A DNA stretch of 64,000 nt, taken from positions 331 through 64,330 of IMG/VR virus record IMGVR_UViG_3300011429_000004; one strand, written 5' to 3'. The notes below the pieces were generated by a model. It worked only from the letters and a program-made list of their open reading frames with translations. It searched no databases and was not told where the DNA came from. Each line of letters starts with the position of its first letter. The first letter of the stretch is position 1. Below, in pieces: positions 793 to 36,521 of the stretch. Made by a program: the position numbers and the translations under genes. The DNA comes from a virus.

Positions 793-1824
793 ATGGCTTA
801 TCCTAATCTGAGCGAAATTGTTACTACTACGCTCCGCAACCGTACAGGAGTGTTGCAGGATAACGTAAGTCGTAACAACGCCCTTCTTGCTCGTCTGAAT
901 AAGAAAGGTCGTATTAAGACGTTTTCTGGTGGTCGTACTATTGTACAAGAACTGGACTATGCTAACAACCAGACCTTTACTTGGTATAGTGGCTACCAGA
1001 CGATTAATATCAGCCCGAGCCAGGTGTTTACTGCTGCTGAGTTCCCCATTCGCCAGGCCGCTTTGGCTGTTTCCATTTCCGGCTTAGAGGAAATTCAGAA
1101 TAGTGGTGAAGAGGCTATTATTGACCTGTTAGAAGGCCGCATTGAGAACGGCGAGCGTTCTTTTATGAATGGTCTCTCTAATGGTGTCTATGGCGATGGC
1201 TCTGTTGCTGGTTCTATCGGTGGCTTACAGTTACTTGTTGCGGCTACGCCGACAACTGGTACTGTAGGTGGTATTGATCGTTCGCAGTGGGCGTTCTTTA
1301 GGAATCTTTCCTTTAGCGCGTTAACTGATGGCGGCGCCGCTGCTTCTGCAGCTAATATTTTAAATTACATGGATAGTTTATGGGTACAGTTGGTTAGGGG
1401 CCGTGATTTCCCCGATCTTATTGTTGCCGATAATAACATGTATAAGTTCTATCTTCAGGCGTTGCAGTCTATTCAACGAATTCAGTCTGAAGGTGGAGCG
1501 CCTGACTTAGCGGAAGCCGGTTATTCTTCACTGAAATACATGAATAGCGATGTTGTCCTTGATGGTGGTTTCCAGGGATTTTCTGCTGATCCTCTTCCCC
1601 CGGAGATTAGTGGTTCTGGTACTGCTGTTGGTGGTGTTCCGACATCGTTTATGTATTTCTTGAATACCAACTACCTCCATTGGCGTCCACATGCACAGCG
1701 TAACATGGTTCCTCTCGATCCTGATCGTTTCTCTGTTAATCAGGACGCGATGGTTCGCTTGTTAGGCTGGGCCGGTAACGCCACGTTATCGAATGCTTTC
1801 CTCCAGGGTCTTATCAAGACCTAA
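793..1824 (+). CDS. Major capsid protein (HK97-fold, lambda E-like C-terminus).
   Basis: 343 aa. Follows the scaffold-like gene with an RBS-like aggag. C-terminal LDPDRFSVNQ is reminiscent of lambda gpE PDEFVSVQ. Placed at the head of the structural operon. Confidence 0.55.
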   Translation: MAYPNLSEIVTTTLRNRTGVLQDNVSRNNALLARLNKKGRIKTFSGGRTIVQELDYANNQTFTWYSGYQTINISPSQVFTAAEFPIRQAALAVSISGLEEIQNSGEEAIIDLLEGRIENGERSFMNGLSNGVYGDGSVAGSIGGLQLLVAATPTTGTVGGIDRSQWAFFRNLSFSALTDGGAAASAANILNYMDSLWVQLVRGRDFPDLIVADNNMYKFYLQALQSIQRIQSEGGAPDLAEAGYSSLKYMNSDVVLDGGFQGFSADPLPPEISGSGTAVGGVPTSFMYFLNTNYLHWRPHAQRNMVPLDPDRFSVNQDAMVRLLGWAGNATLSNAFLQGLIKT

Positions 1825-1845
1825 TAGAAAGAAGGAGATAGTAAA

Positions 1846-2448
1846 ATGGCTGCTATCGCGACTATCACTACTTTCTATCCTATGGATGGAAAGGAGGGTG
1901 TTAACTTAAATATGACTGTGGCTAACGTCACAGCCACAGCTAATACTCCTGAGTATCCTGCGCCGCCAATGAAACTTGGTGATCGAGTGCAGGGTAATGC
2001 TGGCTCTGAGTGGCTCTTCGTTCAAGCATCTACTACTGTTACTTGCTACATGGTTGTGGCAATTGACAGTGGTTATAATGCTAACGATGCTACTCAGGCT
2101 AACATTACTTCCAACGTCTATACTTATGGCGTTGCGGAGTTCCCGCCCAACCAAGCTGGCGCTACTGTGAGCATTGGTAATGCTAACGGTGGTGTCTGTA
2201 ATGCTGGTGATTTCTTCTGGGCGATGATGAAGTCTAATGGTGGCGCACAGGTTAATGCGCGTAGTTTGGCTAACGCAGGTGGTGCTAGAATATTTATCGA
2301 AGTTGCGACTCCTGGTGTTATCTCAACTACAGCATCTAACTCTTATTTCCCTGCCATTGTCATCCCAGTGTCTCTCCAGACAACTACTGTTGTCACGCCT
2401 ATTCTGTGGGCTGGTGGATATTGGTTCCCAGTGTCAGTGACAGCTTAA
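1846..2448 (+). CDS. Ser/Thr-rich small virion protein. It may be a decoration protein and/or a glycosylation substrate.
   Basis: 200 aa, T/S/N/A-rich. Strong RBS gaaggag. Lies between the capsid gene and Maf-like gene 1. Confidence 0.4.
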   Translation: MAAIATITTFYPMDGKEGVNLNMTVANVTATANTPEYPAPPMKLGDRVQGNAGSEWLFVQASTTVTCYMVVAIDSGYNANDATQANITSNVYTYGVAEFPPNQAGATVSIGNANGGVCNAGDFFWAMMKSNGGAQVNARSLANAGGARIFIEVATPGVISTTASNSYFPAIVIPVSLQTTTVVTPILWAGGYWFPVSVTA

Positions 2449-2488
2449 GTTTAGCCTTGGCCTTACTCGGAGAAGGAGCATCTTATTC

Positions 2489-3397
2489 ATGGATAGTGGT
2501 ATACATAATGTACCTGAAGCATACCACGTCGATGGGTTTGATGCTCCTTTTACGCCTGTTAAATTGATTAATACACAGGCAGCTACTAGTGCTAGTGTTT
2601 TCTTAGAGAATGTATTAGAAAATATTAAGTTAAAAGTGCCTAGGCTTGAGCATTTACCTTCTTTTAGAAAGATTAAAGGCAACGATCATCCAATAGCTAT
2701 AGTAGGTGGTGGTCCTAGCGTAAAAACTCAAATAGAGAAGCTAAAAGAGTTTAAAACTATAGTAGTTGCAGGATCAGCGCACGACTATATAATATCACAA
2801 GGAATAAAACCTACTTACGGTGTTATATGCGATCCTGATCCTGTTAGTATTAACTATTATACTAAATTAGACACAGAAACTACCTATCTTATAGCTACTT
2901 CTTGTGACCCCAAGATAGTTAATCATTTTAAAGAGCACCAACTTGTATTATGGCACTGTCATAGCGAAGAAGCCTCTATAGAGATTAAAAAAGTAGAGAA
3001 AGAGTATTATGGGGTGGCAGGTGGATGCACAGTAGGATTAAGGTCTCTTTGCATAGCTATCCTTTTAGGGTATAATAATATACATTTCTTTGGTTTTGAT
3101 AGCTGCTTAGGACTAGAAGATAATTCACACCATGCTTATGGCTTTTCTACTGAACAAGAAGAAGACTATGGTATAACTCATAAAATTAAATTAGGTAAGG
3201 ATAGACCAGATAAAAAAACTTATACTTGTATCGGGTATCAATTAGCTCAAGCGCATCATTTCAAAGAATTTTATTTTGAGCACTATAATATCTTTACTCC
3301 GACATTTCATGGCGATGGTATGCTACAAGATTTAGGGGCAATGTTAAAACTAGAAGTAGAAGCACATATAGCTAAACAAAAAGAGACCTTGCAATGA
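2489..3397 (+). CDS. Maf-like / DUF115 (MptE-like) putative nonulosonic-acid (pseudaminic-acid) glycosyltransferase, copy 1.
   Basis: Motifs IAIVGGGPS, VVAGSAHDY and GIKPTYGVICDPDP match the Rossmann core of motility-accessory-factor/DUF115 proteins. Paralogous to the ORF at 4211-5131. Confidence 0.6.
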   Translation: MDSGIHNVPEAYHVDGFDAPFTPVKLINTQAATSASVFLENVLENIKLKVPRLEHLPSFRKIKGNDHPIAIVGGGPSVKTQIEKLKEFKTIVVAGSAHDYIISQGIKPTYGVICDPDPVSINYYTKLDTETTYLIATSCDPKIVNHFKEHQLVLWHCHSEEASIEIKKVEKEYYGVAGGCTVGLRSLCIAILLGYNNIHFFGFDSCLGLEDNSHHAYGFSTEQEEDYGITHKIKLGKDRPDKKTYTCIGYQLAQAHHFKEFYFEHYNIFTPTFHGDGMLQDLGAMLKLEVEAHIAKQKETLQ

Positions 3398-4224
3398 GCC
3401 AGGACTGGAATGCAACTAAGATCAATTGGAACGGTGGAGGGCTATCTGGCACCGTCCAATTTGGAAATGATGCTCTTACGTTGGTTATGTTCTACAATAA
3501 ATCTGTAGAAATACCTGCTAAATCTATCGAGATGGGTCGTCGTTGGTTTGAAGACCAAATATATGTAACTATTCAGCACCCAGGCGAAAATCTCAATAAA
3601 ATAGACAGACCGGCTACAGATCAAGATAAGATGCGCTATAGGTCTCAATGGAGCGCATTTGTGCAGAACAGAACACAAATTCCAGAGGGAACTACTATAG
3701 ATTTATTATTTCCAAATCATCCATCTGTGGGTGAGAACTTAAAAGCTATGGGAGTGTACACAATTGAGCAATGCGCCAAACTCTCAGCTTCCGCAATTGA
3801 CAATATCGGCCGTGGTGGCCAAGAATACGTTAATCGTGCGCAAATGTATTTATCTAGTGCCGAAAAAGGCAAAGCTTTCCATAAATTACAAAAACAAATA
3901 GACGACGAAAGAGTCGAAAAAAGAGTGCTTCAACAGCAAGTAGCCGACCTCAAGAGACAGTTAGATCAAGTGCTTATGCGTACAGGGAACCAACCACTAA
4001 GCGCGTTTGTGCCTGGACCGCAACACGACGAACAATCAGCTAGAATTAATGCTAATCATCCTACTCAGGAACTAGCAAAGAAGAGAAAGAAGAAAGTACA
4101 GCCGGTAGAAATAGAGCCTGATCCTATTACTGATCCTCTACATAAGATGCAGCCTTCTATTCATGATGAGCTTTCTAATAATCCTGATATAGGCTCTACG
4201 GATCATCAAGATGCTTCCGTTTGA
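3394..4224 (+). CDS. Hypothetical virion-module protein with a coiled-coil C-terminal half.
   Basis: 276 aa ORF. Its start overlaps the previous stop by 4 bp (ATGA overlap), suggesting translational coupling. Confidence 0.4.
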   Translation: MSQDWNATKINWNGGGLSGTVQFGNDALTLVMFYNKSVEIPAKSIEMGRRWFEDQIYVTIQHPGENLNKIDRPATDQDKMRYRSQWSAFVQNRTQIPEGTTIDLLFPNHPSVGENLKAMGVYTIEQCAKLSASAIDNIGRGGQEYVNRAQMYLSSAEKGKAFHKLQKQIDDERVEKRVLQQQVADLKRQLDQVLMRTGNQPLSAFVPGPQHDEQSARINANHPTQELAKKRKKKVQPVEIEPDPITDPLHKMQPSIHDELSNNPDIGSTDHQDASV

Positions 4225-5131
4225 GGAACAGTTTAATATACCAGGTATGGTTAAGCTTGACGGCATAGATGTACAGACAGCTACGCCGACTGAACACATT
4301 AAAGAGAACATATTAAAAAATAAAGACAGGAAACTGACTCCAATAGATCATAATATATGGTGGCGCGAACAAGTACCTATTGCTATAGTAGGTGGTGGAC
4401 CTTCTCTAGAAAAAGAAGTAGAGAATTTAAGGAAATATAATTATATAATGGCTTGTGGTTCTGCACATGATTATACAATAGAAAAAGGAATATTACCTAA
4501 TTGGTGCGCTGTTTGTGACCCTGATCCTATAGTAGTTAATTATTTAAAGTACAAAAAAGACAGTATAGATTATTTAATAGCATCTCAATGTTCGCCAGAA
4601 GTATTTGAGCACCTTAAAGATTGCCATATTACTATGTGGCATCTTATGGGTGATAAATTTGACCATTCTATTTATGGTGCAGAGGGGCAAGTACTTATAG
4701 GTGGTGGCTGTACTATACTTACAAGGGCAATGGTTATAGCAATGGGCATGGGTTTTTATAATTTACATCTTTTTGGGTGCGACACTAGCCTAGGTCTAAA
4801 CGGAGAGCATCACGCATATGAATGGAGTGATCCAACTAAAGAACAAACATACGACCAAGCAAAGGTTCAGTTTGAAGTGGATGGACCTATCTTTAGAGTA
4901 GCTGGATATCATTTAGGCCAGCTATTTGATATTAAAGCATTATCTAAACAGTACGCTAATAGGATGCAAATTACTGTTCATGGTGAAAGTTTGCTGCACT
5001 ATTTTATGGAACTAGCACAAAAGAGACTTAAACTCAAGAAAGAATGGGATTTAAAAAATGGCGTTAACTCAGGATTTAATGGGTCTGGGACTTCAGCCGT
5101 TTCTGGCGGCCAAGATAGCCCGCAACCCTAG
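4211..5131 (+). CDS. Maf-like / DUF115 putative nonulosonic-acid glycosyltransferase, copy 2.
   Basis: Motifs IAIVGGGPSL, ACGSAHDY and GILPNWCAVCDPDP. Clear paralog of 2489-3397. Confidence 0.6.
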   Translation: MLPFEEQFNIPGMVKLDGIDVQTATPTEHIKENILKNKDRKLTPIDHNIWWREQVPIAIVGGGPSLEKEVENLRKYNYIMACGSAHDYTIEKGILPNWCAVCDPDPIVVNYLKYKKDSIDYLIASQCSPEVFEHLKDCHITMWHLMGDKFDHSIYGAEGQVLIGGGCTILTRAMVIAMGMGFYNLHLFGCDTSLGLNGEHHAYEWSDPTKEQTYDQAKVQFEVDGPIFRVAGYHLGQLFDIKALSKQYANRMQITVHGESLLHYFMELAQKRLKLKKEWDLKNGVNSGFNGSGTSAVSGGQDSPQP

Positions 5132-5462
5132 ATCAGTTACAGCGCAAGGCGCTACTTTAGGCTCTGCGTCCAGAATAGGTAATCAAACTCAGATTGCTTA
5201 TGTTGTTACTACTAACTCAGGCAGTGGCTTAGTTCTGCCAAACGTTGGTGGTGACGCTGGTTGCTTACTTGGTGATGATATAGTTGTTGTCAATGGCTTA
5301 CAGGCAGCAATTATAGTCTATGCTTCAGCAAGTGCTACTTTCCTTGGATTTGGTGTTAGCGCATCTGGTAATACAGGTGTAGCTATTGCTACTGCAAATA
5401 CAGCTATTTTCTATTCTGTGACTGCTACTACTTGGGCAGTTGTGGTTGGAGGCAGTGCTTAA
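5058..5462 (+). CDS. Gly/Ser/Thr/Ala-rich small protein. It may be a virion surface protein or a glycosylation substrate. It overlaps the 3' end of Maf-like gene 2 in another frame.
   Basis: 134 aa ORF with low-complexity G/S/T/A/V composition. The true start is uncertain. Confidence 0.3.
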   Translation: MALTQDLMGLGLQPFLAAKIARNPRSVTAQGATLGSASRIGNQTQIAYVVTTNSGSGLVLPNVGGDAGCLLGDDIVVVNGLQAAIIVYASASATFLGFGVSASGNTGVAIATANTAIFYSVTATTWAVVVGGSA

Positions 5463-5557
5463 TAGTAGTCTATGGTGGCGAAAAGGCTTGGAGGTACGAA
5501 CTCCAATTGTCCTTCCCCGAACCGGGATAGCCACCACTCATTTTATAAGAGGCTACT

Positions 5558-6520
5558 ATGACACAAAAAACACTTCTACAAATAGTACAAACAGCGCAAG
5601 GCGAACTTGGGCTGGCCCAAAGTGCCAGTGTGGTTGGAAATATTGACCAAACCACGGTGCAAATGTATGGCTATGCTAATCAGTCTTTAGAAGAGCTAAG
5701 ACAAGTTAAAGACGATGGTTGGACTGCTCTTCAAAAAGAATATAATTTAGTTGTTAATGTGCCTGTTGCAACGACAGGTAATACTACTGCAAATAATGCA
5801 GTAATTACTAACATACCTAGTACTGCTGCTCTATTGGCTAATTATATGATGGTGGCAGGAGCTAACATACCTGCTGCGGCTAGAATATTATCTGTAGACT
5901 CAGCTACTCAAGTAACTATGACTATGGAATGTACTACTACAGCGGTAGGTATAGCTCTTACGTTTATGCAAGATACTTACCCAGAGCCTAGTGATTTTGG
6001 ATATTTTATAAATCGTACATGGTGGGACAGGACCAATCGCTGGGAGCTTCTAGGCCCCGACAGCCCGCAAATGGATCAATGGCATAGGTCTGGGATCGTT
6101 GTAACGGGGCCTAGGCGGCATTTTCGGCAGCTGGGAGCCTTGGCCAACACATACCGCATATGGCCGCCACCGGCCGAAATCACGGCCCCTTTACAGCTTG
6201 TATATGAATACGTTAGTCAAGATTGCGTGTATGTAAATGGAGGTACTACTACAGCCCCTACGTTTGCTAATGATGCAGATATACCTATTCTCAGCGACCG
6301 TGCAATTATTCTTGCCGTTAAATGGCGTTTTTGGGAGCAAAAAGGTTTTGATTGGACTCAAAAGCGCACTGACTACGATGATTATGTAGAGCGATTAATA
6401 GCAAGAGATGGTGGTAGGAAGACTTTATCACTGGTTAAACGACAGTCGCCGATATTTATCTCTCCATCAAATGTGCAAGATGGGTTTTTCCCAGGTCCTA
6501 CGGGACCGAATATGAGTTAG
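5558..6520 (+). CDS. Hypothetical virion protein.
   Basis: 320 aa ORF in the structural operon, preceded by an RBS. Confidence 0.4.
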   Translation: MTQKTLLQIVQTAQGELGLAQSASVVGNIDQTTVQMYGYANQSLEELRQVKDDGWTALQKEYNLVVNVPVATTGNTTANNAVITNIPSTAALLANYMMVAGANIPAAARILSVDSATQVTMTMECTTTAVGIALTFMQDTYPEPSDFGYFINRTWWDRTNRWELLGPDSPQMDQWHRSGIVVTGPRRHFRQLGALANTYRIWPPPAEITAPLQLVYEYVSQDCVYVNGGTTTAPTFANDADIPILSDRAIILAVKWRFWEQKGFDWTQKRTDYDDYVERLIARDGGRKTLSLVKRQSPIFISPSNVQDGFFPGPTGPNMS

Positions 6521-6528
6521 GAAACAAC

Positions 6529-6795
6529 ATGATGTTCGGCTTTGGATCAAATGGTGAAACAGTAAAGCAAATACAAAGAAAAGTAAATGTAACTGTAGAT
6601 GGTATCTATGGCCCTTTGACTACACAAGCGGTTAGAGATTACCAAAGTAAAAACGGTCTTACTGCCGATGGTGTAGTCGGACCACTTACAATGGAGAAAA
6701 TGAATTTATTCCCCACTACGGTAATAGGAATACTCAAGAAAGCCGGTGAGAATCTTTATGATGCAGTAGTACATTCAACACCGAGTCCTAATTAG
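6529..6795 (+). CDS. Small protein with a peptidoglycan-binding domain.
   Basis: Tandem DGIYGPLT / DGVVGPLT motifs are typical of PG_binding_1 repeats. Confidence 0.5.
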   Translation: MMFGFGSNGETVKQIQRKVNVTVDGIYGPLTTQAVRDYQSKNGLTADGVVGPLTMEKMNLFPTTVIGILKKAGENLYDAVVHSTPSPN

Positions 6796-6797
6796 TA

Positions 6798-8480
6798 ATG
6801 GCTTACGTAAAGAAAAAATATCAACAACAATTTGGGTCTAAAGGTTCTTATTTAGACAAAGACGTAGCTGTAAAAATAGCGCCCTCTCCTATCGGAGGCT
6901 GGGATGCTATTTCTCCATTGGCTGCAATGGAGGCTAAATATGCCTCTATACTTGTTAATTGGGTTCCTCGTACTGGATGGTGCGAAGTAAGAGGCGGCTA
7001 CAACATATGGTCTCAGCATCCTAATACTAATGCTGTTAATACTTTAATGGCTTATAGGCCGCCCCTTGGATCAGAGAAATTATTCTCAGCACAAGGCACT
7101 CAAATATGGAATGTATCTAGTTATGGATTACCTACTCTAGAAAGGTCTGGTGTAGGCAGCTCTTTTTATCAATATGTAAATTTTACACCTGCCTTGGGTT
7201 CTTCTTATTTAATGGCTGTAAACGGCATAGATACTTTACTTACTTACAACGGCACTACATGGGCTAATCAAACTATAACTGGTGCAGGAACAGCAGTATT
7301 CATAGGTATAAATATATTTAAACGTAGAGTGTGGTTAATTCCCCCTAGCTCTACTATAGCTTATTTTCTTGGTACTGATGCTATTACAGGTCCAGCGACT
7401 GCGCTGGACTTAGGTGCCTTTATGAATAAAGGTGGCTATGTAATGGCTATGGGCACCTGGACTGTAGATGGAGGCAATGGTCCAGATGACATGGCTATAT
7501 TTGTTACTTCTAGAGGACAAGTTATACAATATAAGGGCACTGATCCAACTAACGCCAACGCTTGGGCTCTAGTAGGCGTATTTGATTTACCGCCACCTAT
7601 TTCTAGGAGATGTCTATATAGGTTCGGTAGTGATTTAATGCTAATCACTCAAGAAGGTGTGCTGCCTATATCTCAAGCTCTTCCTTTTGATCCATCTGCT
7701 TCTAGAAGTATAGCGCTTACTAATCGTATACAGAATGCTATGTTAGTTGCCGCACAATATAGTAAGAGTTTTACTGGTTGGCAGATGTTGTCTTTTCCTC
7801 TTCAAAGTTTATTTATATTAAACGTGCCACAGGATCAAGCAAGCACTCGTGTACAGTACGTAATGAATACTATTACAGGTGCGTGGACTCAGTTTCAAGG
7901 GTGGAATGCCAATTGTTTTGAAATTTTTAACGATAGTTTGTATTTTGGAGACGCCAATGGAAATACTAACCTTGCTTATACTTCTGGTCTAGATAAAGTA
8001 GCTTATATATTTTACGATATGAAATGTGCTTTTAATTACTTTGAAGAGCCTGGCAGACTTAAAAACGGAAACATGGTAAGACCGTTTTTAATCGCAGATG
8101 GCACACTTATACCCAATATACAAATAGATGTAGACTTTGAGAATAGCTCTCCATCTGCGCCTGTAACTATTCTAACTCCTACAGGGGCTATTTGGGATAG
8201 TTCTTTATGGGATAGTGCAGTATGGTCTACTGGAGCTATTCCAGTAATTAATTGGCTTAGTTGCAATGCGCTTGGCACTGCGTTGGCCATAAGAATGACT
8301 ATTAACCTTGCTGGTGGCGGCACTTCTAGTAGTGTATCTCAATCCAGTGTGTTTGATACTGGTGTATTCGGCACAATGATATTTGATGGTAATGGTTCCA
8401 TTACTGCAAGTGGCGCAGATATACCTGTACTTCAAGTTAATTTATTTGAGATAGTACTTGAGTATGGCGGTCCTATATGA
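6798..8480 (+). CDS. Large virion protein, a tail tubular/nozzle-type candidate.
   Basis: 560 aa. Its position after the capsid/decoration genes matches a T7-like gp11/gp12 slot. No motif-level identification. Confidence 0.35.
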   Translation: MAYVKKKYQQQFGSKGSYLDKDVAVKIAPSPIGGWDAISPLAAMEAKYASILVNWVPRTGWCEVRGGYNIWSQHPNTNAVNTLMAYRPPLGSEKLFSAQGTQIWNVSSYGLPTLERSGVGSSFYQYVNFTPALGSSYLMAVNGIDTLLTYNGTTWANQTITGAGTAVFIGINIFKRRVWLIPPSSTIAYFLGTDAITGPATALDLGAFMNKGGYVMAMGTWTVDGGNGPDDMAIFVTSRGQVIQYKGTDPTNANAWALVGVFDLPPPISRRCLYRFGSDLMLITQEGVLPISQALPFDPSASRSIALTNRIQNAMLVAAQYSKSFTGWQMLSFPLQSLFILNVPQDQASTRVQYVMNTITGAWTQFQGWNANCFEIFNDSLYFGDANGNTNLAYTSGLDKVAYIFYDMKCAFNYFEEPGRLKNGNMVRPFLIADGTLIPNIQIDVDFENSSPSAPVTILTPTGAIWDSSLWDSAVWSTGAIPVINWLSCNALGTALAIRMTINLAGGGTSSSVSQSSVFDTGVFGTMIFDGNGSITASGADIPVLQVNLFEIVLEYGGPI

Positions 8481-8911
8481 TTTATACTATATCTGGTACA
8501 TACCAAGATTCAGTAGGTCAATTAATAGTTGGATATTTTAATCAAGCCAGAGGAGAAATATCTGTAGTTGAGCCTTATTCTGCGATAGGTTGGGTTAGGG
8601 ATAATAAAATTATAGGACAGGCTATTTTTACTGGTTTTACAGGATCGAATGTAGATATACATCTTAATATGCCAAAGTGTATATGTAGAAAAACTATAAA
8701 AGATGTGTATAGTTATGTATTTAATCAACTTAGATGCAATAGACTCACCGCTAAGTTAGAACCAAATAACGATAAATTATCTCGCTTGCTTCCAAGAATG
8801 GGATTTGAGTATAGGTTTACAGACGAGGGCTACTATGGAGAACCTGATAAACCTATAAACGCTGAAGTATATGTTTTAAGTAAGAAAAACGCCCTTAAAT
8901 GGATAAAATAA
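8477..8911 (+). CDS. Hypothetical protein.
   Basis: 144 aa ORF with a 4-bp overlap coupling to the upstream gene. Confidence 0.35.
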   Translation: MIYTISGTYQDSVGQLIVGYFNQARGEISVVEPYSAIGWVRDNKIIGQAIFTGFTGSNVDIHLNMPKCICRKTIKDVYSYVFNQLRCNRLTAKLEPNNDKLSRLLPRMGFEYRFTDEGYYGEPDKPINAEVYVLSKKNALKWIK

Positions 8912-13877: not shown

Positions 13878-15080
13878 ATGCCACGTAACTCAAGCGGTAC
13901 TTACAGCCTTCCAGTTGCGGCCTATGTGGCTGGCACAACTATCCGCTCAGCGGATATGAATAGTAACTTATCTGATATAGCTACAGCACTTACTCAATCT
14001 GTTGCTACCACTGGCGTATCTCCAATGACAGGGCCGCTTTACTTGGCGGCTGGCTCTCTTGCAGCGCCTTCTCTGTCTTTAGCATCTGACCACGCTACCG
14101 GCTGGTATAATAACGCCGCTGGCGCAATGACTTATGTAAGTGTAGGCGTAGCCATACTAGGCTTATCTGGCTCTGGGGCTTCTTTAATAGGTTCTCTTAC
14201 TGTTTCTACTTCTTTACAAGTAGGGACTACTTTAATAGTTGCGTCCACTACTACTATGCAAGGTATTTTAACTATTGCAGTGGCCTCTAATACAGCTGTA
14301 TTTAGAAATACAACTAACGATACAAATGTTAATTTTATTGTAACTTTTCAGCAAGGTTCTGGTGCTGGGCAAGCCGCAAGCATAAGAGCCGCAGGAACAG
14401 CTGCTAATGACATTACAGCTATAGCATATTATATGGGAGCTACTCTTGCTTATGGATATACTGCTACTTCTATTAATGCTTTTATACCTTTTAGACTAAG
14501 TGAAATAGCCGTACCAGCCGCACCTGCTGCAAATACAGGTTTAATATATGCTTATCTAGATACTACTACTAAATTAGCGTATAAAAATTCAGCCGGTAAT
14601 ATACATTATATTGCGCCTGTTGGAGGTATAATTACAGAGGCGTTTGGTTCTTACGCTTTAAATACTAATTTAAGTGCGACTATTCCAATTGACGATACTA
14701 TACCTCAAACAGGAGAAGGTGATTTAATTATATCTCAAGCTATTACTATTAAAAACGCTAATTCTAGAATAAGAGTACGCGCGCAAGGTCAGTGGGGAGC
14801 TACTTCTATAAATTCAACTCTTATTATGGCAATATTTGATAGCGCTACTGGCGCAAATGCTATAGCAGCTGTGGCTCAAAATAACGATGGCAGTAATAGT
14901 GGGTCCATGCAGCAAGCATTTTTAGAGTGGGAATACGCCGCTCCTGCCGCTGGCGCTGTTACCTATACTCTTAGGGCAGGGTGTAATTCTGCTTATAGGT
15001 TCAATGGAATTGTTAGTGCAAGGCTACTTGGTGGTTCTTCCCATGTGACTCTTCTAATAGAAGAAATTCAACAAGCGTGA
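13878..15080 (+). CDS. Tail fibre protein.
   Basis: N-terminus SSGTYSLPVAAYVAGTTIRSADMNSNLSDIATALTQS matches the conserved N-terminal pattern of phage tail fibres. Ser/Thr/Ala-rich beta-rich body. Confidence 0.5.
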   Translation: MPRNSSGTYSLPVAAYVAGTTIRSADMNSNLSDIATALTQSVATTGVSPMTGPLYLAAGSLAAPSLSLASDHATGWYNNAAGAMTYVSVGVAILGLSGSGASLIGSLTVSTSLQVGTTLIVASTTTMQGILTIAVASNTAVFRNTTNDTNVNFIVTFQQGSGAGQAASIRAAGTAANDITAIAYYMGATLAYGYTATSINAFIPFRLSEIAVPAAPAANTGLIYAYLDTTTKLAYKNSAGNIHYIAPVGGIITEAFGSYALNTNLSATIPIDDTIPQTGEGDLIISQAITIKNANSRIRVRAQGQWGATSINSTLIMAIFDSATGANAIAAVAQNNDGSNSGSMQQAFLEWEYAAPAAGAVTYTLRAGCNSAYRFNGIVSARLLGGSSHVTLLIEEIQQA

Positions 15081-15089
15081 GATAAGTAA

Positions 15090-16250
15090 ATGCCATTTTC
15101 AGGTAGTACATTTACAAACGTAGCTGGCGCTACTACGGCTGTTGCTGGTGATATAGTACAATCAGCCACATGGAATGCTATACATAGTGATTACGCTACG
15201 GCGTTTACTCAAGTGTTATCTCAAGTAGTAGCTGGTATCACTAATAGAAATATACTATGGATGAATGGCGGCTGTGAAATATGGCAACAAGGTGCCGGCA
15301 GCGCTTCTAGCATAGCTGTAGCTAGTGCGGCTACTAACTACACAGCTGATAGATGGTATCTATTAAACGGAGCTAGTTTAGCTCAAGTTGTTGCAGCTGT
15401 AACAGGTCTAACTACTAATTCTCAACTAGCAGCAAGAATAAGAAGAAATGCAGGCATCACGACAACTACTGTATCTACTTTTGGATATCCATTAGACTCT
15501 GATGAACTTCAGAGAATGCGGGGTAAAATAGCTACTTTTAGTTGTGTTGTTCAAGCTGGGGCTAATTGGTCCCCCGCTAGTGGTACTCTTACTGTTGCTC
15601 TATATGTTGGGACTGGTGCAGTAGCTAAGAGGGGAGCTGGATTTACTTCTGAAACTACTGTACTGTCTATTTCTACTAACTTAACCGCTGGTGGCGCAGT
15701 TACTGCTATCAGTGGCTCTAGTAGTGCAATTGTTCCAACTACAGCTACTCAAGGAGAATTGCAGTTTACTTGGACTCCTTCAGGCGCAGCTGGTGCCGCA
15801 GATGATATTAGTATAGATGATGTAATGGTAGAGAGTCAGCTATCAGCTACTACTTGGACACCAACTAATTTTGATAGAATAGCTTTTCCAAATATGCTAC
15901 AAGGATGCCAAAGATTCTTTAATAAAACATTTAATTATAGTGTAGCACCTGCACAAACAGGTGGACTACAAGGCGCGTTAGTTAATCAAGCCATTGCTAA
16001 TTCTTCCCCATTTATTTGGTGGCAGTTTCCAACTGAGATGCGTGTGACTGCCAGTATTGTTACATTTAATCCTTCAGCTGGCAATGCAAATTGGCGAGAT
16101 GTAGTGGCGGCTGCTGATGTGGTTGTGTCTGTAGATAGCGCATTAGGTGGCGGCACTAAAGCCATATTTATATATGGGGCTACTGCTACGGCTACCTTAG
16201 TTCCTACTCATAATTTATACATTCATGCAATCGCCTCAGCGGGTATATGA
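15090..16250 (+). CDS. Second tail fibre-like protein.
   Basis: Same N-terminal style (GSTFTNVAGATT...SATWNAIHSDYATAFTQV). 386 aa. Confidence 0.45.
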   Translation: MPFSGSTFTNVAGATTAVAGDIVQSATWNAIHSDYATAFTQVLSQVVAGITNRNILWMNGGCEIWQQGAGSASSIAVASAATNYTADRWYLLNGASLAQVVAAVTGLTTNSQLAARIRRNAGITTTTVSTFGYPLDSDELQRMRGKIATFSCVVQAGANWSPASGTLTVALYVGTGAVAKRGAGFTSETTVLSISTNLTAGGAVTAISGSSSAIVPTTATQGELQFTWTPSGAAGAADDISIDDVMVESQLSATTWTPTNFDRIAFPNMLQGCQRFFNKTFNYSVAPAQTGGLQGALVNQAIANSSPFIWWQFPTEMRVTASIVTFNPSAGNANWRDVVAAADVVVSVDSALGGGTKAIFIYGATATATLVPTHNLYIHAIASAGI

Positions 16251-16678
16251 GAGATAAAATGGCACAAGAAAAAGTACTAATGAGTTTTCCTAATTTAATA
16301 ACGGTAGAATTACCTAAAGATAGATTAGTTACTCCATTTGCAGGACTAATACCTCAGCAAATAGTCAAAGAGGTATTAGATTTAACCTACAGAGGAGTAA
16401 CCCACAGAGATGGTTCTTGGAGAATAAACCCCGCAGAGTGGAAAATAAATAAATTAGGAGTTGGTGAGTATCAAATAATACATATGCTAGGATACGACAA
16501 TACTTCTCTTAGTGTAAGTTTACTAGTACAGCCAGGAAGTTTTAGAATAGTTGAGCATGGACTATTAAGTTTTACAGTGGAGACTCTATTAGATAAAGTC
16601 CCCACTGACTTAGATTTCTCTTTTACTCTAGCTAGGGTAATTTCCCAGCCGGTCCCGCCAGCGGTCCGTTCTGCTTAG
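16247..16678 (+). CDS. Hypothetical protein, possibly a fibre assembly/chaperone protein.
   Basis: 143 aa. 4-bp overlap with the fibre gene. Confidence 0.3.
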   Translation: MRDKMAQEKVLMSFPNLITVELPKDRLVTPFAGLIPQQIVKEVLDLTYRGVTHRDGSWRINPAEWKINKLGVGEYQIIHMLGYDNTSLSVSLLVQPGSFRIVEHGLLSFTVETLLDKVPTDLDFSFTLARVISQPVPPAVRSA

Positions 16679-17009
16679 CGGATTCTACTAGCTCTTTGAC
16701 ACTCTTCGTGTTCACATTTGCACTATTCCCTAGGGGAACAGAAGAAGAACGAGCAGTAGTTGCACTAGAGCCTTTAGTAATAAGCTCTAAGATAACATGT
16801 TGCAAAAACTGTGAATTATCGTGAACTTGTGCCTTGAGCACAGCTATTTCTTGCTCTTTTGCTTGAAGAATGGCGTTTACTTTCTTCTCTAGTACATAGA
16901 GAAGATCATCCTCGTCTTCAAATTCTTCGTGGTGACTACGAGGAACTGGCGCCGGACTTTTCTTAGACCAGATGTTCATTTCAAGGTACTCCCTTATGGG
17001 ATTTCTCAC
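16632..17009 (-). CDS. Hypothetical protein. The internal Met at 16979 is a likelier start.
   Basis: 125 aa ORF on the minus strand, convergent with the structural operon. Confidence 0.3.
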   Translation of the reverse strand: MRNPIREYLEMNIWSKKSPAPVPRSHHEEFEDEDDLLYVLEKKVNAILQAKEQEIAVLKAQVHDNSQFLQHVILELITKGSSATTARSSSVPLGNSANVNTKSVKELVESAKQNGPLAGPAGKLP

Positions 17010-17046
17010 TTAGCATAAAACTTATCACAAGTCAACTAAAAATTGG

Positions 17047-22520: not shown

Positions 22521-22806
22521 TTTTTTTCCCTTTCCAGCTTGTCTAGTCGTTTTTCTGTCTTTCGATGCTCAGTAGCACTAATAAGACAGTATACCCCTAT
22601 AATCATTAGTATTACATCTCTCCATTCCATTTTACACCACCTGCAAGAGAAGCCTAGGAAGTTCCGCTTTAGTGTAAACTAAACTTGTCCTAGGTCATTT
22701 TGATCGCGTCCTTAATACTTATTTCTTGTCGTCTTGCTGGGGATTGATACTTACAAAGCCCTTAAGCCTTACGACTTGCGATCTTACGTTTGGCTCCATT
22801 TCATTG

Positions 22807-22879
22807 GAGCCGCTAATAGGAATCGAACCTATCACACCCTGATTACAAGTCAGGTGCTCTACCAACTGAGCTATAGCGG
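22807..22879 (-). tRNA. tRNA-Thr (anticodon TGT).
   Basis: The reverse complement folds as a cloverleaf: acceptor GCCGCTA/TAGCGGC, D-arm GCTCAGTTGGTAGAGC, anticodon loop CTTGTAA, T-arm ATAGGTTCGATTCCTAT. The ORF at 22719-22916 is its translation artefact. Confidence 0.8.
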
Positions 22880-23059
22880 CGGTTAAGTGGTATGTGTTGC
22901 ATGTAGTACCGAGCAACGGGCGGTTTACACTTCTGCGGTTTTGTATCTTCTTACATTGGCCAGTACTCTCTATACTACGGGAGAATTTTGGTCAATGGTT
23001 AACAACCTCGATCACGAAAACGTGATTGACTTTTGCCTCTCTCTATGCTATAGAGGCAC

Positions 23060-23548
23060 ATGTCTGATCGTCCAAAAATCAAAGAAGTCTTAGCCGCACT
23101 ACAAGATGTGGTGGGCGATATGGTCATTACCCTACAAGCCCTAGATAAAAACGACATACCTACGCTTTTGGCTGCATACAAGCAGCTTAATGAGGTAAAA
23201 GGTATCACAGATGATCTTTACAAGACTGTAAATGAGCAATACCAGAAACTATCTTACGAGGTAATTCCTGATGCCTTTGAAACCAACAAATTCGATTCGG
23301 TTAAAGCACATGGAAGAAACTTTGTCCAGTCAGTACGAATTAATGCATCTATACCGGAACACATGCGCGAAGCTGGACACAAGTGGATTAACGAAGTCGC
23401 AAAGGTCCCAGAACTCATTATACCTAATGTCAATCCTAGATCACTCAGTGCTTTTGTTAAAGGATACTTTGAAGATAATGCAATGTGGCCCCCGGAAGAT
23501 GCGATAAAAGTACATAAACAAAGATACATTAGTATAAGGAAGACCTAG
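23060..23548 (+). CDS. Hypothetical protein.
   Basis: 162 aa ORF. Confidence 0.35.
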   Translation: MSDRPKIKEVLAALQDVVGDMVITLQALDKNDIPTLLAAYKQLNEVKGITDDLYKTVNEQYQKLSYEVIPDAFETNKFDSVKAHGRNFVQSVRINASIPEHMREAGHKWINEVAKVPELIIPNVNPRSLSAFVKGYFEDNAMWPPEDAIKVHKQRYISIRKT

Positions 23549-23679: not shown

Positions 23680-24027
23680 GTGCGTAAAAAGATGAGCTAC
23701 ATCTGCGAACTCTCAGAACTAAAATCTTTTATTAATACAGCTAAACCTAATGATAAATTTATATACTACACTGGCTTTTCTCTTACCCAAACCATAATGT
23801 CCAATGAACTAAGGAAAATTACTTACGAGTACGCCGTTAAAGGCGAAGTGTACTTAGTACAAAAGAGGTATCAAAATACCTTTGATTTTATGGTAATTAA
23901 AGCCAGTAAGAACCCTATCTATAAATTAATACCTTTTAGTGACGAGAAGAGAAAAGAGCATCTTAGACCTGTCAGACTGCAACCACGAAAGGCAAGAACC
24001 TATGAGTACAAATCTAGTCAAGTCTAA
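23680..24027 (+). CDS. Hypothetical protein.
   Basis: 115 aa ORF. Confidence 0.3.
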   Translation: MRKKMSYICELSELKSFINTAKPNDKFIYYTGFSLTQTIMSNELRKITYEYAVKGEVYLVQKRYQNTFDFMVIKASKNPIYKLIPFSDEKRKEHLRPVRLQPRKARTYEYKSSQV

Positions 24028-24841
24028 TGGAGCTACTGAAGTAATTCCGTTTGACACTACACCTGATTACCTTCCTGCTACCACTAAGAATACTGGCATA
24101 GAAGGACTCGGCAAAGACGACTACAAAACCCCGAGGATTCTTCTCTTGCAGGGTTTGTCTCCTCAACTTACAAATTTCCCAGAGACAGCTAGAGCAGGAC
24201 ATTTTTGGCATACTGGACTTAATGTTTCCCTTGGGGACGAGTTTACTTTTGTCCCGGTTACTGTTAATAAGCGTGTTATTTTATGGCGCCCTCGCAATGA
24301 TAATAATGGGGGTATTTTAGCCTTCTCTAAGGACGGCATCAAGTGGGATACAGGGGCCAATCAAAAGTTTCAGGTTAAACTCAGAGACAGAAAAGAAACT
24401 GTCACCTGGGACACAGGTAAAGATGTTAATTCTTCTGGCCTCACTATGTTTGGTACTGCTGATCCCGATAATAGTGAGAGTGGACCAGCTGCTACTACTG
24501 TCTACGAGTATCTTATTTATCTCCCAGAGCACCCGGAGTTATCCCCTTGTGTTATGGGAGTATCTAAGACAGGGCTACCTAATGGTAAGGGGTTTAATAC
24601 GTCCCTTATGACTATCGCCCGTACAGGCAAGCCTGTAAACTGTGTAGCAGTGCGCGCTTTTGCCGAAGAGAAATCAGGCGATGGCAATAAGTGGACTGTG
24701 CCTAATTTTAAACTCTTGGGTTGGGCTCCTAAGTCCGCTATGGAAGTAGCTGCTAAGATGGCTGAAACCTACGCAGACTATAAAGTTGAATATACAGAAG
24801 ATGACGCCTCTGCACCGTCTGTTGACGAAATAAAGTATTAA
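23939..24841 (+). CDS. Hypothetical protein. The internal ATG at 24002 (MSTNLVKSNG) is a plausible true start.
   Basis: 300 aa ORF. Followed by a perfect GC hairpin. Confidence 0.4.
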   Translation: MTRREKSILDLSDCNHERQEPMSTNLVKSNGATEVIPFDTTPDYLPATTKNTGIEGLGKDDYKTPRILLLQGLSPQLTNFPETARAGHFWHTGLNVSLGDEFTFVPVTVNKRVILWRPRNDNNGGILAFSKDGIKWDTGANQKFQVKLRDRKETVTWDTGKDVNSSGLTMFGTADPDNSESGPAATTVYEYLIYLPEHPELSPCVMGVSKTGLPNGKGFNTSLMTIARTGKPVNCVAVRAFAEEKSGDGNKWTVPNFKLLGWAPKSAMEVAAKMAETYADYKVEYTEDDASAPSVDEIKY

Positions 24842-25182: not shown

Positions 25183-25267
25183 GCGCTCATGGCGAAATTG
25201 GTAGACGCAACAGACTTAAAATCTGTCGGGAAATCCCGTGTGGGTTCAAGTCCCGCTGAGCGCACCA
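25183..25267 (+). tRNA. tRNA-Leu (anticodon TAA), with a long variable arm and encoded CCA.
   Basis: GCGCTCATGGCGAAATTGGTAGACGC...anticodon loop CTTAAAA...variable arm CGGGAAATCCCG...GGTTCAAGTCC...GAGCGCACCA. Confidence 0.8.
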
Positions 25268-25762
25268 ATGTCTAGATATCATACTCCAATTCAACCTTTA
25301 AATAATATACTAGACTATATAAATAAAAATTATTTTTATAGAATAGATGGAACAGTAATTAGCAAAATTACTTTGAATGTACTTGGCTGTGATGATGGAC
25401 AAGGGTATTTACATACAACTGTATGTGGTAAATCACTAAGATTACACCATATAGTTTGGTTTTTAAACAAAGGAGAGTGGCCTAAACATCAATTAGATCA
25501 TAGGGATTTAGATAGTTATAACAATAGAATAGATAATTTACGTGAAGTTAACAATAGCATACAAGCCAGAAACAAGAGAAAAACAAACAAAACTGGACTT
25601 ATCGGAGCGTATAAAGTTAAAGATGGCTATCAGTCACAAATATGGAAAAACAATAAAAGGTACATTTGTGGATATTATCCAACAAAACAAGAAGCACATG
25701 AGGCGTACAAGAAAAAATATTTAGAACTATGGGGAGTAGAGTACGCAGATGCAAAACAGTAA
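25268..25762 (+). CDS. HNH homing endonuclease with an AP2-type DNA-binding domain. A mobile element inserted between two tRNA genes.
   Basis: HNH_3 motif LHHIVWFLNKGEWPKHQLDHRDLDSYNNRIDNLREV followed by an AP2-like GAYKVKDGYQSQIWKNNKRYICGYYPTKQEAHEAY. Starts at the base after tRNA-Leu and ends one base before tRNA-Gln. Confidence 0.6.
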   Translation: MSRYHTPIQPLNNILDYINKNYFYRIDGTVISKITLNVLGCDDGQGYLHTTVCGKSLRLHHIVWFLNKGEWPKHQLDHRDLDSYNNRIDNLREVNNSIQARNKRKTNKTGLIGAYKVKDGYQSQIWKNNKRYICGYYPTKQEAHEAYKKKYLELWGVEYADAKQ

Positions 25763-25763
25763 T

Positions 25764-25839
25764 AGCCGCTTAGCTCAATTGGCAGAGCATCTGATTTTGA
25801 GTCAGAGGGTTATAGGTTCAAATCCTATAGCGGTTGCCA
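25764..25839 (+). tRNA. tRNA-Gln (anticodon TTG), with encoded CCA.
   Basis: AGCCGCTTAGCTCAATTGGCAGAGCATCTGATTTTGAGTCAGAGGGTTATAGGTTCAAATCCTATAGCGGTTGCCA. Acceptor and anticodon stems pair. Confidence 0.75.
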
Positions 25840-28801: not shown

Positions 28802-29257
28802 TTGAACATCGAAGAAGAACTAGATGGATTTAAACTATGCTTGAAGTGTCTTGAAGTCAAGGATATAGATGAATTTGGTAAAAATAGATATAAAAAAGAC
28901 GGTAAGCATGTGTATTGTAAATCATGTGTGCTTATTATAGACAAAAACAAAAGAACAATAAATCCAGATAGGCATAGAAAGTACAATAAAAAGCATAGAG
29001 AAAAGTACCCAGAAAAAGAAAGAGCAAGACACATATTTCGTAAGTACAAATTGACTAAAGAACAATATGAGAACCTGCTGAAACAGCAAAATAATTGTTG
29101 TGGAATATGCAGTAAACAATTTAGGAGCACTCCTAACGTAGATCATAACCACATTACAGGTAAAGTTCGTGGACTACTTTGTAATTATTGTAACAGTATG
29201 TTGGGATGGTACGAACTAAACGATGAAAGGAAAATTCAGGCGTGGACTATGAAATAA
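28802..29257 (+). CDS. Endonuclease VII-family (T4 gp49-like) Holliday-junction resolvase / HNH-like nuclease, copy 1.
   Basis: CCGICSKQF...VDHNHITGKVRGLLCNYCNSMLG Endonuclease_7 signature. TTG start in the ORF track. Confidence 0.55.
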   Translation: MNIEEELDGFKLCLKCLEVKDIDEFGKNRYKKDGKHVYCKSCVLIIDKNKRTINPDRHRKYNKKHREKYPEKERARHIFRKYKLTKEQYENLLKQQNNCCGICSKQFRSTPNVDHNHITGKVRGLLCNYCNSMLGWYELNDERKIQAWTMK

Positions 29258-35523: not shown

Positions 35524-36030
35524 TTAGACTACAGTTGGGGTGATTACGATAGAGCTAAGAACCTGCGGCGCAGGGGCGACGTTTACATTCAACGTTGCGC
35601 CAAACTGCTTGCCACCGACCATGGCTGTAACACTAATGGTATCTACGCCATCAGCTACCGGAGTAGCTACGGCCTGAAGGCCATCAGCAGATGCAACAAG
35701 AGTCTCAGTTGCAGGAGTAGTATTAGACCAAATAGGCGGGCTATCCACAACTTGCGGAGTCAGCATCGGGTTGCCGTTCTGGTCCAAAAAGTCAATTACC
35801 ATGTTGATGACATGGCCTAATGATACTTGGGTATCCATGAGTATTCTATCCTTTGCTATTGTAGATACGTAGCCATCTCGGGTTAAGATGGTAAAACGTA
35901 TATACGATGGGAAGCAGTGGTGGTGATGATGATGATGATGATGACGATGGTGTCTATGCTTCTTTCTTCGCTTCATTATCGCAGTATAACACAGAGATAC
36001 TCTTTCGTAAAGCGAGATAATTAATCGCAT
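35524..36030 (-). CDS. Protein with a natural poly-histidine tract (HHRHHHHHHHHH) and a C-terminal bacterial Ig-like (Big_2-type) domain.
   Basis: The His tract is encoded by (GAT)6GACGAT on the + strand at 35925-35948. The C-terminus DGVDTISVTAMVGGKQFGATLNVNV is Big_2-like. Last gene of the sugar operon. Confidence 0.45.
   Translation of the reverse strand: MRLIISLYERVSLCYTAIMKRRKKHRHHRHHHHHHHHHCFPSYIRFTILTRDGYVSTIAKDRILMDTQVSLGHVINMVIDFLDQNGNPMLTPQVVDSPPIWSNTTPATETLVASADGLQAVATPVADGVDTISVTAMVGGKQFGATLNVNVAPAPQVLSSIVITPTVV
35919..35950. repeat. Trinucleotide microsatellite (GAT)n encoding the His tract.
   Basis: gtggtggtgatgatgatgatgatgatgacgatggtg. Confidence 0.7.
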
Positions 36031-36521
36031 GGTGAGTGTGCTCTTGGTAAAACAAACGCTGGGTTAGAGTATTTATATACATACTGTAAGAGTTTATTGT
36101 TTTCATCATAGTCTTGGCCTAAGTACTTAAATCCTTTCATACAAAAGAAAGCCAAGCTCCTAGAATTAAATGCGCCTATGTTAGCTAAGAAATACTCTAC
36201 ATCTGGAGTATCTTCTATTAGCATATTTAGCGCCTTAGAGCCAAATCCTCTCTTTTGGTTGTATCTCTCTATGAATATACCTATTTCGTTGAGCTTAGTT
36301 AGATAAATAGCCCCTACTGGGCCTTTATAATCTATGATATACCATTTTTTATATGGTTTACTCCTCACAAAACTTACGTGCTCGTCGTAAGTCGGCATCT
36401 TCTTATGAGAAATATTCTCCCATGGTTTACGATCCTTAAGAAGGTTATATAAAAACCTCTCGTACATATGACGTTCTGGGGTGGGTGTGTCGTATATACC
36501 AATAAGAGCTAGTTGGGTCAT
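36021..36521 (-). CDS. GNAT-family N-acetyltransferase (PseH-like candidate).
   Basis: GNAT motif A region IGIFIERYNQKRGFGSKALNML. 166 aa. Confidence 0.5.
   Translation of the reverse strand: MTQLALIGIYDTPTPERHMYERFLYNLLKDRKPWENISHKKMPTYDEHVSFVRSKPYKKWYIIDYKGPVGAIYLTKLNEIGIFIERYNQKRGFGSKALNMLIEDTPDVEYFLANIGAFNSRSLAFFCMKGFKYLGQDYDENNKLLQYVYKYSNPAFVLPRAHSPCD

Follow-up and report, generated by a model that had tools for sequence, protein, structure and literature searches.

Why would a tailed phage keep enzymes of the kind that glycosylate bacterial flagellin inside its capsid gene block? The question is raised by a stretch of viral DNA of 64,000 nucleotides (positions 331 to 64,330 of IMG/VR record IMGVR_UViG_3300011429_000004; hereafter the window), which represents a nearly entire phage genome. 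Downstream of its major capsid protein (MCP) gene, the window encodes two short proteins, termed Maf1 and Maf2, and an identical Maf1 protein was found on contigs of 64,330 and 64,186 bp. An earlier note, made from the letters of the window, had described this locus as a candidate virion glycosylation system. Every open reading frame (ORF) named there was found in place, the in-silico predictions of the proposal were all borne out, and from these we infer the glycosylation itself. On the grounds of sequence comparison and structure modeling, we propose with moderate confidence that the phage O-pseudaminylates its own head proteins by means of minimal Maf enzymes and a sugar donor whose synthesis it also encodes.

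Maf1 and Maf2 matched PF01973 (Maf_flag10/DUF115) with 87.0 bits (E 1.6e-24) and 81.7 bits (E 6.9e-23), respectively, at a gathering cutoff of 34.6 bits. The two proteins are paralogs (34% identity across 273 residues, E 4e-54), and each carries the motifs IVGGGPS, GSAHDY, and CDPDP, which confirms the earlier claim of two paralogous Maf-like ORFs. Their sole significant relative of known structure at the sequence level was the Maf flagellin glycosyltransferase of Magnetospirillum magneticum (PDB 5MU5; E 3.6e-5 with Maf2), and a profile built from 36 family members matched the same protein with an E value of 7.6e-8 at positions 60-214, thereby spanning both catalytic motifs. An AlphaFold (AF2) model of Maf1 was obtained with a predicted local distance difference test score (pLDDT) of 91.8 and a predicted template modeling score (pTM) of 0.89. 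When this model was searched with Foldseek, 5MU5 was the top match (E 1.2e-8), followed by the archaeal protein MptE (8sd5) and then by sialyltransferases of family GT29, which depend on sialic acid activated with cytidine monophosphate (CMP), namely ST8SiaIII, ST6GalNAc2, and ST3Gal-type enzymes. NCBIfam returned matches below threshold only, one with the central domain of PseD, a flagellin modification protein of the Maf family in Campylobacter, and the other with WaaZ, a CMP-Kdo transferase. The PseD model (NF050051) scored 41.9 and 22.3 bits against a cutoff of 670 over positions 222-403 of its 640, which puts both proteins far below the curated family threshold.

The residues expected of a Maf active site are also in place. 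In the M. magneticum enzyme (MmMaf), E324 and D415 are essential by mutagenesis, as cited in bioRxiv 10.1101/2020.06.03.131540, which also reports that the Clostridium (CbMaf S334) and Geobacillus Mafs have an essential, conserved Ser that precedes the second acidic residue by 23 positions. Alignment to 5MU5 placed D115, D204, and T181 of Maf1 at the positions of MmMaf E324, MmMaf D415, and CbMaf S334, respectively, and these three equivalents were invariant in 36/36 family sequences, Maf2 included. Because the two phage proteins matched 5MU5 by sequence, profile, and fold and retain the equivalents of its essential residues, we class their catalytic domains, as far as comparison and modeling can tell, with those of Maf-type enzymes.

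By the same comparisons, they are not ordinary members of the Maf family. Flagellar Mafs are three-domain proteins of approximately 600-670 residues, whereas Maf1 and Maf2 have 302 and 306 residues and can be aligned with no more of the 5MU5 chain (666 residues) than residues 257-440. Both the Rossmann-like domain at the N-terminus and the helical domain at the C-terminus are missing from them. The latter domain weakly resembles flagellins and the chaperone FliS, and no function has been established for it (PMC11339370). What the phage Mafs share with flagellar ones (Magnetospirillum 5MU5; Campylobacter PseD, PseE, and Maf4; Aeromonas Maf1; CbMaf) is a central domain of the Maf_flag10/PF01973 type, conserved catalytic residues (acidic and Ser/Thr), a sialyltransferase-like fold, and a genomic pathway for CMP-pseudaminic acid (CMP-Pse). 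The chemistry presumed to be common to both is a cytoplasmic O-linkage of a nonulosonic acid to exposed Ser/Thr residues without a sequon. Unlike flagellar Mafs, the phage Mafs, which are about 300 residues long, form a large clade of their own that consists of stand-alone short proteins, and their genes lie in a head operon, with those for the MCP and a predicted decoration protein as neighbors. The window was found to contain no flagellar genes.

Since PF01973 also includes archaeal MptE kinases, the two proteins could instead be MptE-like pyrophosphokinases or nucleotide-binding assembly factors, with a Pse operon that is unrelated to them and serves a host glycan or DNA modification. MptE (6-hydroxymethyl-7,8-dihydropterin pyrophosphokinase, 8SD5) has the Pfam family, the GxGPS Rossmann motif, and a similar size in common with Maf1; as the second Foldseek match it had the higher target-normalized TM-score (0.56), and phage homologs are automatically named 'MptE-like' in UniProt. 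However, the 36-member profile that covers both catalytic motifs of Maf matched MptE with an E value of only 0.005 at positions 55-104, that is, over about the first 50 residues of the domain and the first Rossmann motif alone, and a single-sequence phmmer comparison of Maf1 with MptE gave an E value of 0.65. GT29 sialyltransferases were recovered by fold and PseD and WaaZ by NCBIfam, and among the window ORFs scanned there were no pterin or folate genes, no other glycosyltransferase genes, and no DNA-hypermodification genes. The Mafs moreover co-occur with the pseudaminic acid synthase PseI on at least 11 contigs, and the presence of one to three paralogs in a head operon is hard to square with cofactor synthesis. 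We thus regard the kinase interpretation as highly improbable. In BFVD, too, related proteins from uncultured phages carry automatic names as 'MptE-like' pterin kinases, and this name is probably misleading.

What, then, are the Maf genes doing among capsid genes? The gene order in the window is MCP, o200, Maf1, o276, Maf2, o134, and adaptor, where o200, o276, and o134 denote three further ORFs; the corresponding order in phage Mx8 is MCP, p49 (a virion structural protein), p50, p51 (tail/adaptor), and p52. The MCP was recognized by phrog_9953 'major head protein' (E 1.3e-105) and shares 53% identity with the MCP of Bradyrhizobium phage ppBjS10J-1 and 45% with that of Mx8, and no sequence homolog of it was found in the PDB. 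The downstream boundary is formed by the head-tail adaptor gene, whose product is a homolog of Mx8 p51 and scored 23.6 bits with PF24175 (SU10_adaptor), which is below the cutoff. The Mafs had been placed directly after the MCP gene; they do lie downstream of it, but o200 intervenes. The genes are tightly packed, with overlaps of 4 nt between Maf1 and o276, 14 nt between o276 and Maf2, and 74 nt between Maf2 and o134. Overlapping stop and start codons (3394/3397 and 4211/4224) indicate translational coupling in the head operon, and Shine-Dalgarno-like sequences precede o200 and Maf1. Because of this packing and because no plus-strand terminator-like site was found from 1644 to 5488, the sequence indicates that Maf1, Maf2, and the head proteins are almost certainly produced together.

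The same arrangement is widespread among metagenomic phages. A word-indexed search returned 321 Maf1 homologs at E ≤ 1e-5, all of about 300 residues and all with PF01973, and many of them were encoded on contigs of 62-66 kb. An exhaustive profile search returned 4,904 clusters (50% identity) at E ≤ 1e-3 and 375 at E ≤ 1e-30; the short-Maf clusters consist mostly of stand-alone proteins of 260-320 residues. We inspected four Logan/ENA contigs, 22 IMG/VR loci, one 6-kb contig labeled as a metagenome-assembled genome (MAG), and five loci with four distant family members; the IMG/VR loci came from a scan with an alignment, a scan with a single protein having given none. In every inspected genome (> 30), the Maf gene or genes, present in one, two, or three copies, lay between the Mx8-type MCP gene and the p50/adaptor genes, and this synteny persisted down to approximately 40% MCP identity and across G + C contents of 38-65%. 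The Maf encoded after the decoration gene was Maf1-like and the one after p50 was Maf2-like, consistently across genomes. The paralogs are therefore old and position-specific, and this comparison of sequences argues for distinct roles that the two may have. The only match of a scan of bacterial genomes was the 6-kb contig, assigned to a Xanthobacteraceae MAG, which is itself a phage head module and therefore gives no reliable host assignment.

The conserved position bears on the question of whose proteins are modified. The Mafs and the Pse pathway might act on proteins or surfaces of the host (flagellin, pilin, S-layer, lipopolysaccharide, or capsule), for example in superinfection exclusion or motility shutdown. 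Flagellin is the substrate of all characterized Mafs (PMC11339370), bacterial proteins other than flagellin are also pseudaminylated (bioRxiv 10.1101/2025.07.13.664564), and phage enzymes that alter Pse-containing capsules of the host are known (PMC12053666, PMC6586298). Yet genes for host takeover are normally early and stand outside structural operons, whereas the Mafs overlap head genes, and they keep strictly to their place in the head module in hosts whose G + C content ranges from 38 to 65%. The phage Mafs are also devoid of the flagellin/FliS-like C-terminal domain, although the function of that domain is unclear. Taken together, these points make a host target quite unlikely.

The proposed self-glycosylation would draw on a second module of the window. 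A CMP-nonulosonic-acid operon had been claimed at 35.5-44.5 kb, and it proved to be real and, more specifically, a pseudaminic-acid pathway, encoded on the minus strand at 36.0-44.5 kb (Table 1). The WbuX-type and HisF2/WbuZ-type proteins constitute an acetamidino-forming pair, and the ORF syntenic to the GNAT candidate in a relative (locus L008) showed weak matches to Acetyltransf families of Pfam. On account of this gene content, the donor is most likely CMP-pseudaminic acid with acetamidino and/or methyl groups, as judged from the sequence. The operon is syntenic in relatives, and the Maf module and Pse genes co-occur on at least 11 related contigs: record names place both modules on the same contig in SRR30650669_2022 and SRR29078233_67391, five further contigs were matched by their lengths across the lists of Maf and Pse homologs, and four IMG/VR contigs appeared in both scans. 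None of 80 viral loci had a Maf within 7 kb of PseI, which is uninformative because the modules are approximately 30 kb apart in the window's family. A 39-kb relative (L119) carries at the capsid-module site an 898-residue fusion of Maf, Methyltransf_24, and Maf (6001-8697), and in another (L120) a separate Methyltransf_24 gene (2265-2840) lies two genes downstream of Maf; together with the Pse-associated methylase of the window, these genes hint at methylation of the glycan or the acceptor.

The prime candidate acceptor is o200. In fold it resembles solved decoration proteins, its best structural match being from cyanophage Pam3, and its gene adjoins that of the MCP; the modeled structure thus predicts a capsid decoration or cement protein. 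Its identity with known cement and decoration proteins (Pam3 cement, XM1 minor capsid, the capsid-stabilizing proteins of TW1 and HFTV1, and the base of phi29 gp8.5) is 6-20%, with no detectable sequence similarity, and unlike them the o200 family is limited to Maf-bearing phages. We know of no solved homolog of o200 that is glycosylated. The second candidate is a stretch of 19 residues inserted into the MCP (residues 261-279), which has conserved flanks and a hypervariable Ser/Thr core; Ser and Thr are interchangeable at columns 273-277, where they account for at least 81% of residues. Columns of this interchangeable kind cluster at MCP residues 273-277 and at o200 residues 160-164 (nt 2323-2337). 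All 16 MCPs from the core clade of Maf-bearing phages have the loop. Like the o200 and o134 families, it was confined to Maf-bearing phages and was absent from five Maf-less relatives (Mx8, ppBjS10J-1, BUCT555, ctMlz233, and MT835830). As for o134, the family is kept at the same position in relatives, with hidden Markov model (HMM) matches in genomes having one, two, or three Mafs. No relative of o134 was found in Pfam, PHROG, PDB, or NCBIfam, and hhalign showed no relation to o200. Metagenome gene callers start this ORF at 5079 (127 residues), whereas the earlier note had used a start at 5058 (134 residues); the latter is favored because homologs begin with a sequence (MA...LMGLG) that aligns with the longer form.

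Each Maf had been thought to stand beside a Ser/Thr-rich small virion ORF of its own. The neighbors do exist, and o200 and o134 are moderately rich in Ser and Thr (17.0 and 17.9%, against a genome median of 11.4%); Gly, Ala, Val, Ser, and Thr make up 52-59% of their residues and Lys, Arg, Asp, and Glu only 6-8%. The two tail-fibre-like ORFs at 13878-15080 and 15090-16250 are richer, however, and the pairing was too neat. A strict Maf2-o134 pair was rejected because the o134 family occurs in single-Maf genomes, and the MCP loop as an obligatory acceptor was rejected because three distant Maf-bearing phages have no loop. For these two reasons, enzymes and acceptors cannot be assigned one to one. 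The ORF at 3394-4224 (o276), likewise proposed as an acceptor or decoration protein, was dropped as such: it is conserved, matched Mx8 p50 by tblastn (29% identity, E 1.7e-15) and phrog_20268 (E 3.8e-12), and with 10.9% Ser and Thr and 24.6% charged residues it is highly charged and not Ser/Thr-rich. From its sequence, we take it to be a backbone gene interleaved with the Maf system and not specific to it.

The composition of the tail-fibre-like ORFs raises the question of whether the glycosylated virion proteins are tail components (fibres, spikes, or adaptor), in which case the head position of the Mafs would reflect late co-expression. No other ORFs of the genome are as rich in Ser/Thr as those two (21%), and in mycobacteriophages capsid and tail-tube subunits are both glycosylated, as cited in PMC12619734. 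The Mafs, on the other hand, were never found among tail-fibre genes but always between the MCP/decoration and p50/adaptor genes in the > 30 genomes, and the features peculiar to Maf-bearing phages, namely o200, the MCP loop, and o134, belong to the head module. We consider tail acceptors unlikely on this evidence.

In the mechanism that we favor, head proteins would be modified as follows. The minus-strand operon would convert UDP-N-acetylglucosamine into a CMP-activated derivative of pseudaminic acid, probably with acetamidino and/or methyl modifications. The capsid operon would be switched on late in infection, and Maf1 and Maf2 would be co-translated with the structural proteins and would transfer the nonulosonic acid to Ser/Thr residues of head proteins in the cytoplasm. 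The likely acceptors would be o200, the Ser/Thr-rich MCP loop, and possibly o134, and the two Maf paralogs would serve different acceptors or different linkages. The comparisons show what the genes are, that fold and motifs are conserved, how the operon is built, that synteny extends across the family, and that Maf and Pse genes occur together. From these we infer which sugar is donated, which proteins and sites accept it, and what the benefit is, which could be shielding, stability, or adhesion of the virion. Whether a large, hitherto unrecognized group of Mx8-like phages (> 30 genomes) coats its capsids in this way, with self-made modified pseudaminic acid and with flagellum-independent Mafs that are subfunctionalized by position into Maf1- and Maf2-type paralogs, in some cases fused to methyltransferases, and act on dedicated acceptors, is a question on which we find the balance about even.

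Several observations weigh against O-pseudaminylation of the head. The acidic residues that are conserved may be a general feature of PF01973 and do not on their own tell Maf from MptE. Because both terminal domains of flagellar Mafs are missing from the sequences of Maf1 and Maf2, the way in which these enzymes would recognize an acceptor is unexplained. The Maf-bearing phages form essentially one clade, so that the association of o200, o134, and the loop with Mafs is suggestive but phylogenetically confounded, and the loop is missing from the three distant Maf-bearing phages. The Ser/Thr-richer tail-fibre-like ORFs could be the real targets. On the donor side, no match to PseG was obtained when the ORFs of the operon and the window were scanned with Pfam and NCBIfam; PseG and PseH may be supplied by the host or be too divergent for detection. 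The PseC-like protein is unusually short (226 residues versus about 380 in typical enzymes), and its N-terminal part alone matches the profiles; it is short in relatives as well (214 and 227 residues) and may be a split or a minimal enzyme. Finally, a tblastn search of 50,697 deposited phage records (INPHARED) with Maf1 returned no homolog, and there is no cultured representative among them.

The arrangement had been held not to be a standard phage module, which agrees with our searches, because it was found neither in deposited phages nor in the literature that we searched. Megablast of the first 12 kb of the window against deposited phages gave no match, and NeuB/PseI homologs in these phages amounted to three marginal records only. 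Within the literature that we covered, which was incomplete, no report described Maf/DUF115 enzymes from the structural modules of phages or phage virions that bear nonulosonic acids. The only established precedent of phage virion glycosylation that surfaced was the mycobacteriophage work cited in PMC12619734. There, phage-encoded glycosyltransferases act on capsid and tail subunits of the phage itself, and a shielding of the virion surface is proposed; both features would be shared with the system proposed here (PMC12619734). The present system differs in its Maf-type enzymes, its predicted sugar, a nine-carbon pseudaminic-acid derivative, its phage-encoded donor pathway, and its occurrence in an Mx8-like podovirus group with diverse hosts. 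Mycobacteriophage systems use conventional nucleotide-hexose glycosyltransferases, are found in actinobacteriophages, and place glycans at C-termini. Virion glycosylation of mycobacteriophages was reportedly described by Freeman et al. in Cell Host Microbe in 2023, and to our knowledge it has so far been shown essentially in these phages alone, with ordinary sugars.

Giant viruses provide a more distant comparison. They glycosylate capsids and fibrils, and some, such as Mimiviridae sp. ChoanoV1 with its DUF115 and GT29 proteins, have sugar-nucleotide pathways of their own together with sialyltransferase-like/DUF115 proteins. Their hosts are eukaryotic, however, the fold match is weak (E 9e-6, TM-score 0.42), and neither the capsid architecture nor the gene context is related. 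The system proposed here would combine two known things, protein glycosylation by Mafs and glycosylation of phage virions.

If the proposal is true, a nonulosonic acid ('bacterial sialic acid') would be seen for the first time as the glycan of a bacteriophage virion, and a virus would for the first time be known to encode Maf enzymes for a purpose other than flagella. Tailed phages that infect many different hosts would then spend approximately 10 kb of a 64-kb genome on a sialic-acid-like decoration of the head, with a bearing on virion stability, adhesion to mucus or to glycan-binding proteins of the host, evasion of grazers or immune recognition, and the pharmacokinetics of phage therapy. 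Compact Mafs of about 300 residues with non-flagellin acceptors could serve as tools for glyco-engineering and as a handle on substrate recognition by Mafs, which is unclear. The 'MptE-like pterin kinase' annotation in UniProt and BFVD would be corrected, and the wider short-Maf family comprises hundreds of protein clusters. The finding of Mafs in a head module is widespread, mechanistically specific, and directly testable.

Table 1. Positions of the head-module features and pseudaminic-acid genes in the window, with the matches that support their assignment
Feature	Positions	Strand	Match
MCP, 343 aa, Mx8-type HK97-fold lineage, candidate acceptor	793-1824	+	phrog_9953
MCP insertion, residues 261-279, QGFSADPLPPEISGSGTAV, candidate O-glycosylation loop	1573-1629	+	
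o200, 200 aa, predicted capsid decoration/cement protein, prime candidate acceptor	1846-2448	+	
Maf1, 302 aa, minimal Maf-type putative CMP-nonulosonic-acid:protein O-glycosyltransferase	2489-3397	+	PF01973
o276, Mx8 p50 homolog, head/neck backbone gene	3394-4224	+	tblastn, phrog_20268
Maf2, 306 aa, putative second minimal Maf-type transferase, ancient paralog after p50	4211-5131	+	PF01973
o134, 134 aa, orphan, candidate second acceptor/decoration protein or specificity factor	5058-5462	+	
Head-tail adaptor, 320 aa, downstream boundary of the module	5558-6520	+	phrog_6013 'tail protein' E 8.5e-31
Possible GNAT N-acetyltransferase, weak PseH candidate	36021-36521	-	NCBIfam GNAT E 7.7e-4
Pseudaminic-acid-biosynthesis-associated methylase	36753-37376	-	TIGR03587 126.9 bits (cutoff 112.05)
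CMP-ulosonic-acid cytidylyltransferase, PseF-like	37360-38067	-	PF02348 CTP_transf_3 88 bits, E 1e-24 (Pfam only)
AglZ/HisF2/WbuZ-type acetamidino-modification protein	38295-39008	-	NF038364 170.6 and TIGR03572 168.2 bits (both below cutoff); PF00977 118.6 bits
WbuX-type N-acetyl sugar amidotransferase (acetamidino formation)	39219-40352	-	TIGR03573 317.8 bits (cutoff 203.2)
PseI pseudaminic acid synthase	41106-42134	-	TIGR03586 374.9 bits (cutoff 340.25); NeuB and SAF Pfam domains
Short PseC/LegC-like DegT aminotransferase, 226 aa	42541-43221	-	PF01041 E 1.7e-17; TIGR03588 39 bits (cutoff 423.5)
PseB-like UDP-GlcNAc 4,6-dehydratase (inverting)	43537-44544	-	TIGR03589 390.1 bits (cutoff 407.75); PF02719 308.9 bits

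Some further observations concern the genes around these modules. The PseC-like gene is flanked by small unassigned ORFs at 43262-43540 and 42131-42544. Between the genes for PseI and the WbuX-type amidotransferase lies an ORF of the Endonuclease VII/HNH type (40349-40813, minus strand), which is missing from the syntenic operon of L008, and further homing-endonuclease-like ORFs were found on the plus strand at 28802-29257 and 25238-25762. NeuB/PseI-type synthases, though almost missing from deposited phages, are common in metagenomic viral contigs: they were confirmed in 163 stretches of IMG/VR contigs of up to 130 kb, giant-virus MAGs included. In three relatives the capsid gene matched the window MCP as two or three fragments that lie approximately 0.8-1 kb apart (L024, 3527-5303; L030, 1826-4677; L032, 3045-4841), which suggests introns, inteins, or homing-endonuclease insertions.

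Downstream of the head module, an 88-residue ORF made up of a peptidoglycan-binding PG_binding_1 domain (6529-6795, plus strand) lies between the adaptor gene and the gene for a 560-residue virion protein. No gene occupies this site in the relatives L006 and L007, and in L007 a 998-residue protein with a Laminin_G_3 (lectin-like) domain (14017-17013) replaces the 560-residue protein after the adaptor. The replication region contains genes for tRNA-Thr (TGT; 22805-22880, minus strand), tRNA-Leu (TAA; 25183-25267, plus strand), and tRNA-Gln (TTG; 25764-25839, plus strand), and that for tRNA-Leu overlaps the 5' end of the HNH_3 ORF at 25238-25762. The plus-strand ORFs at 23060-23548 and 23939-24841 matched PF23984 and PF23977, families that are named for gp33 and gp34 of cyanophage Pam3.

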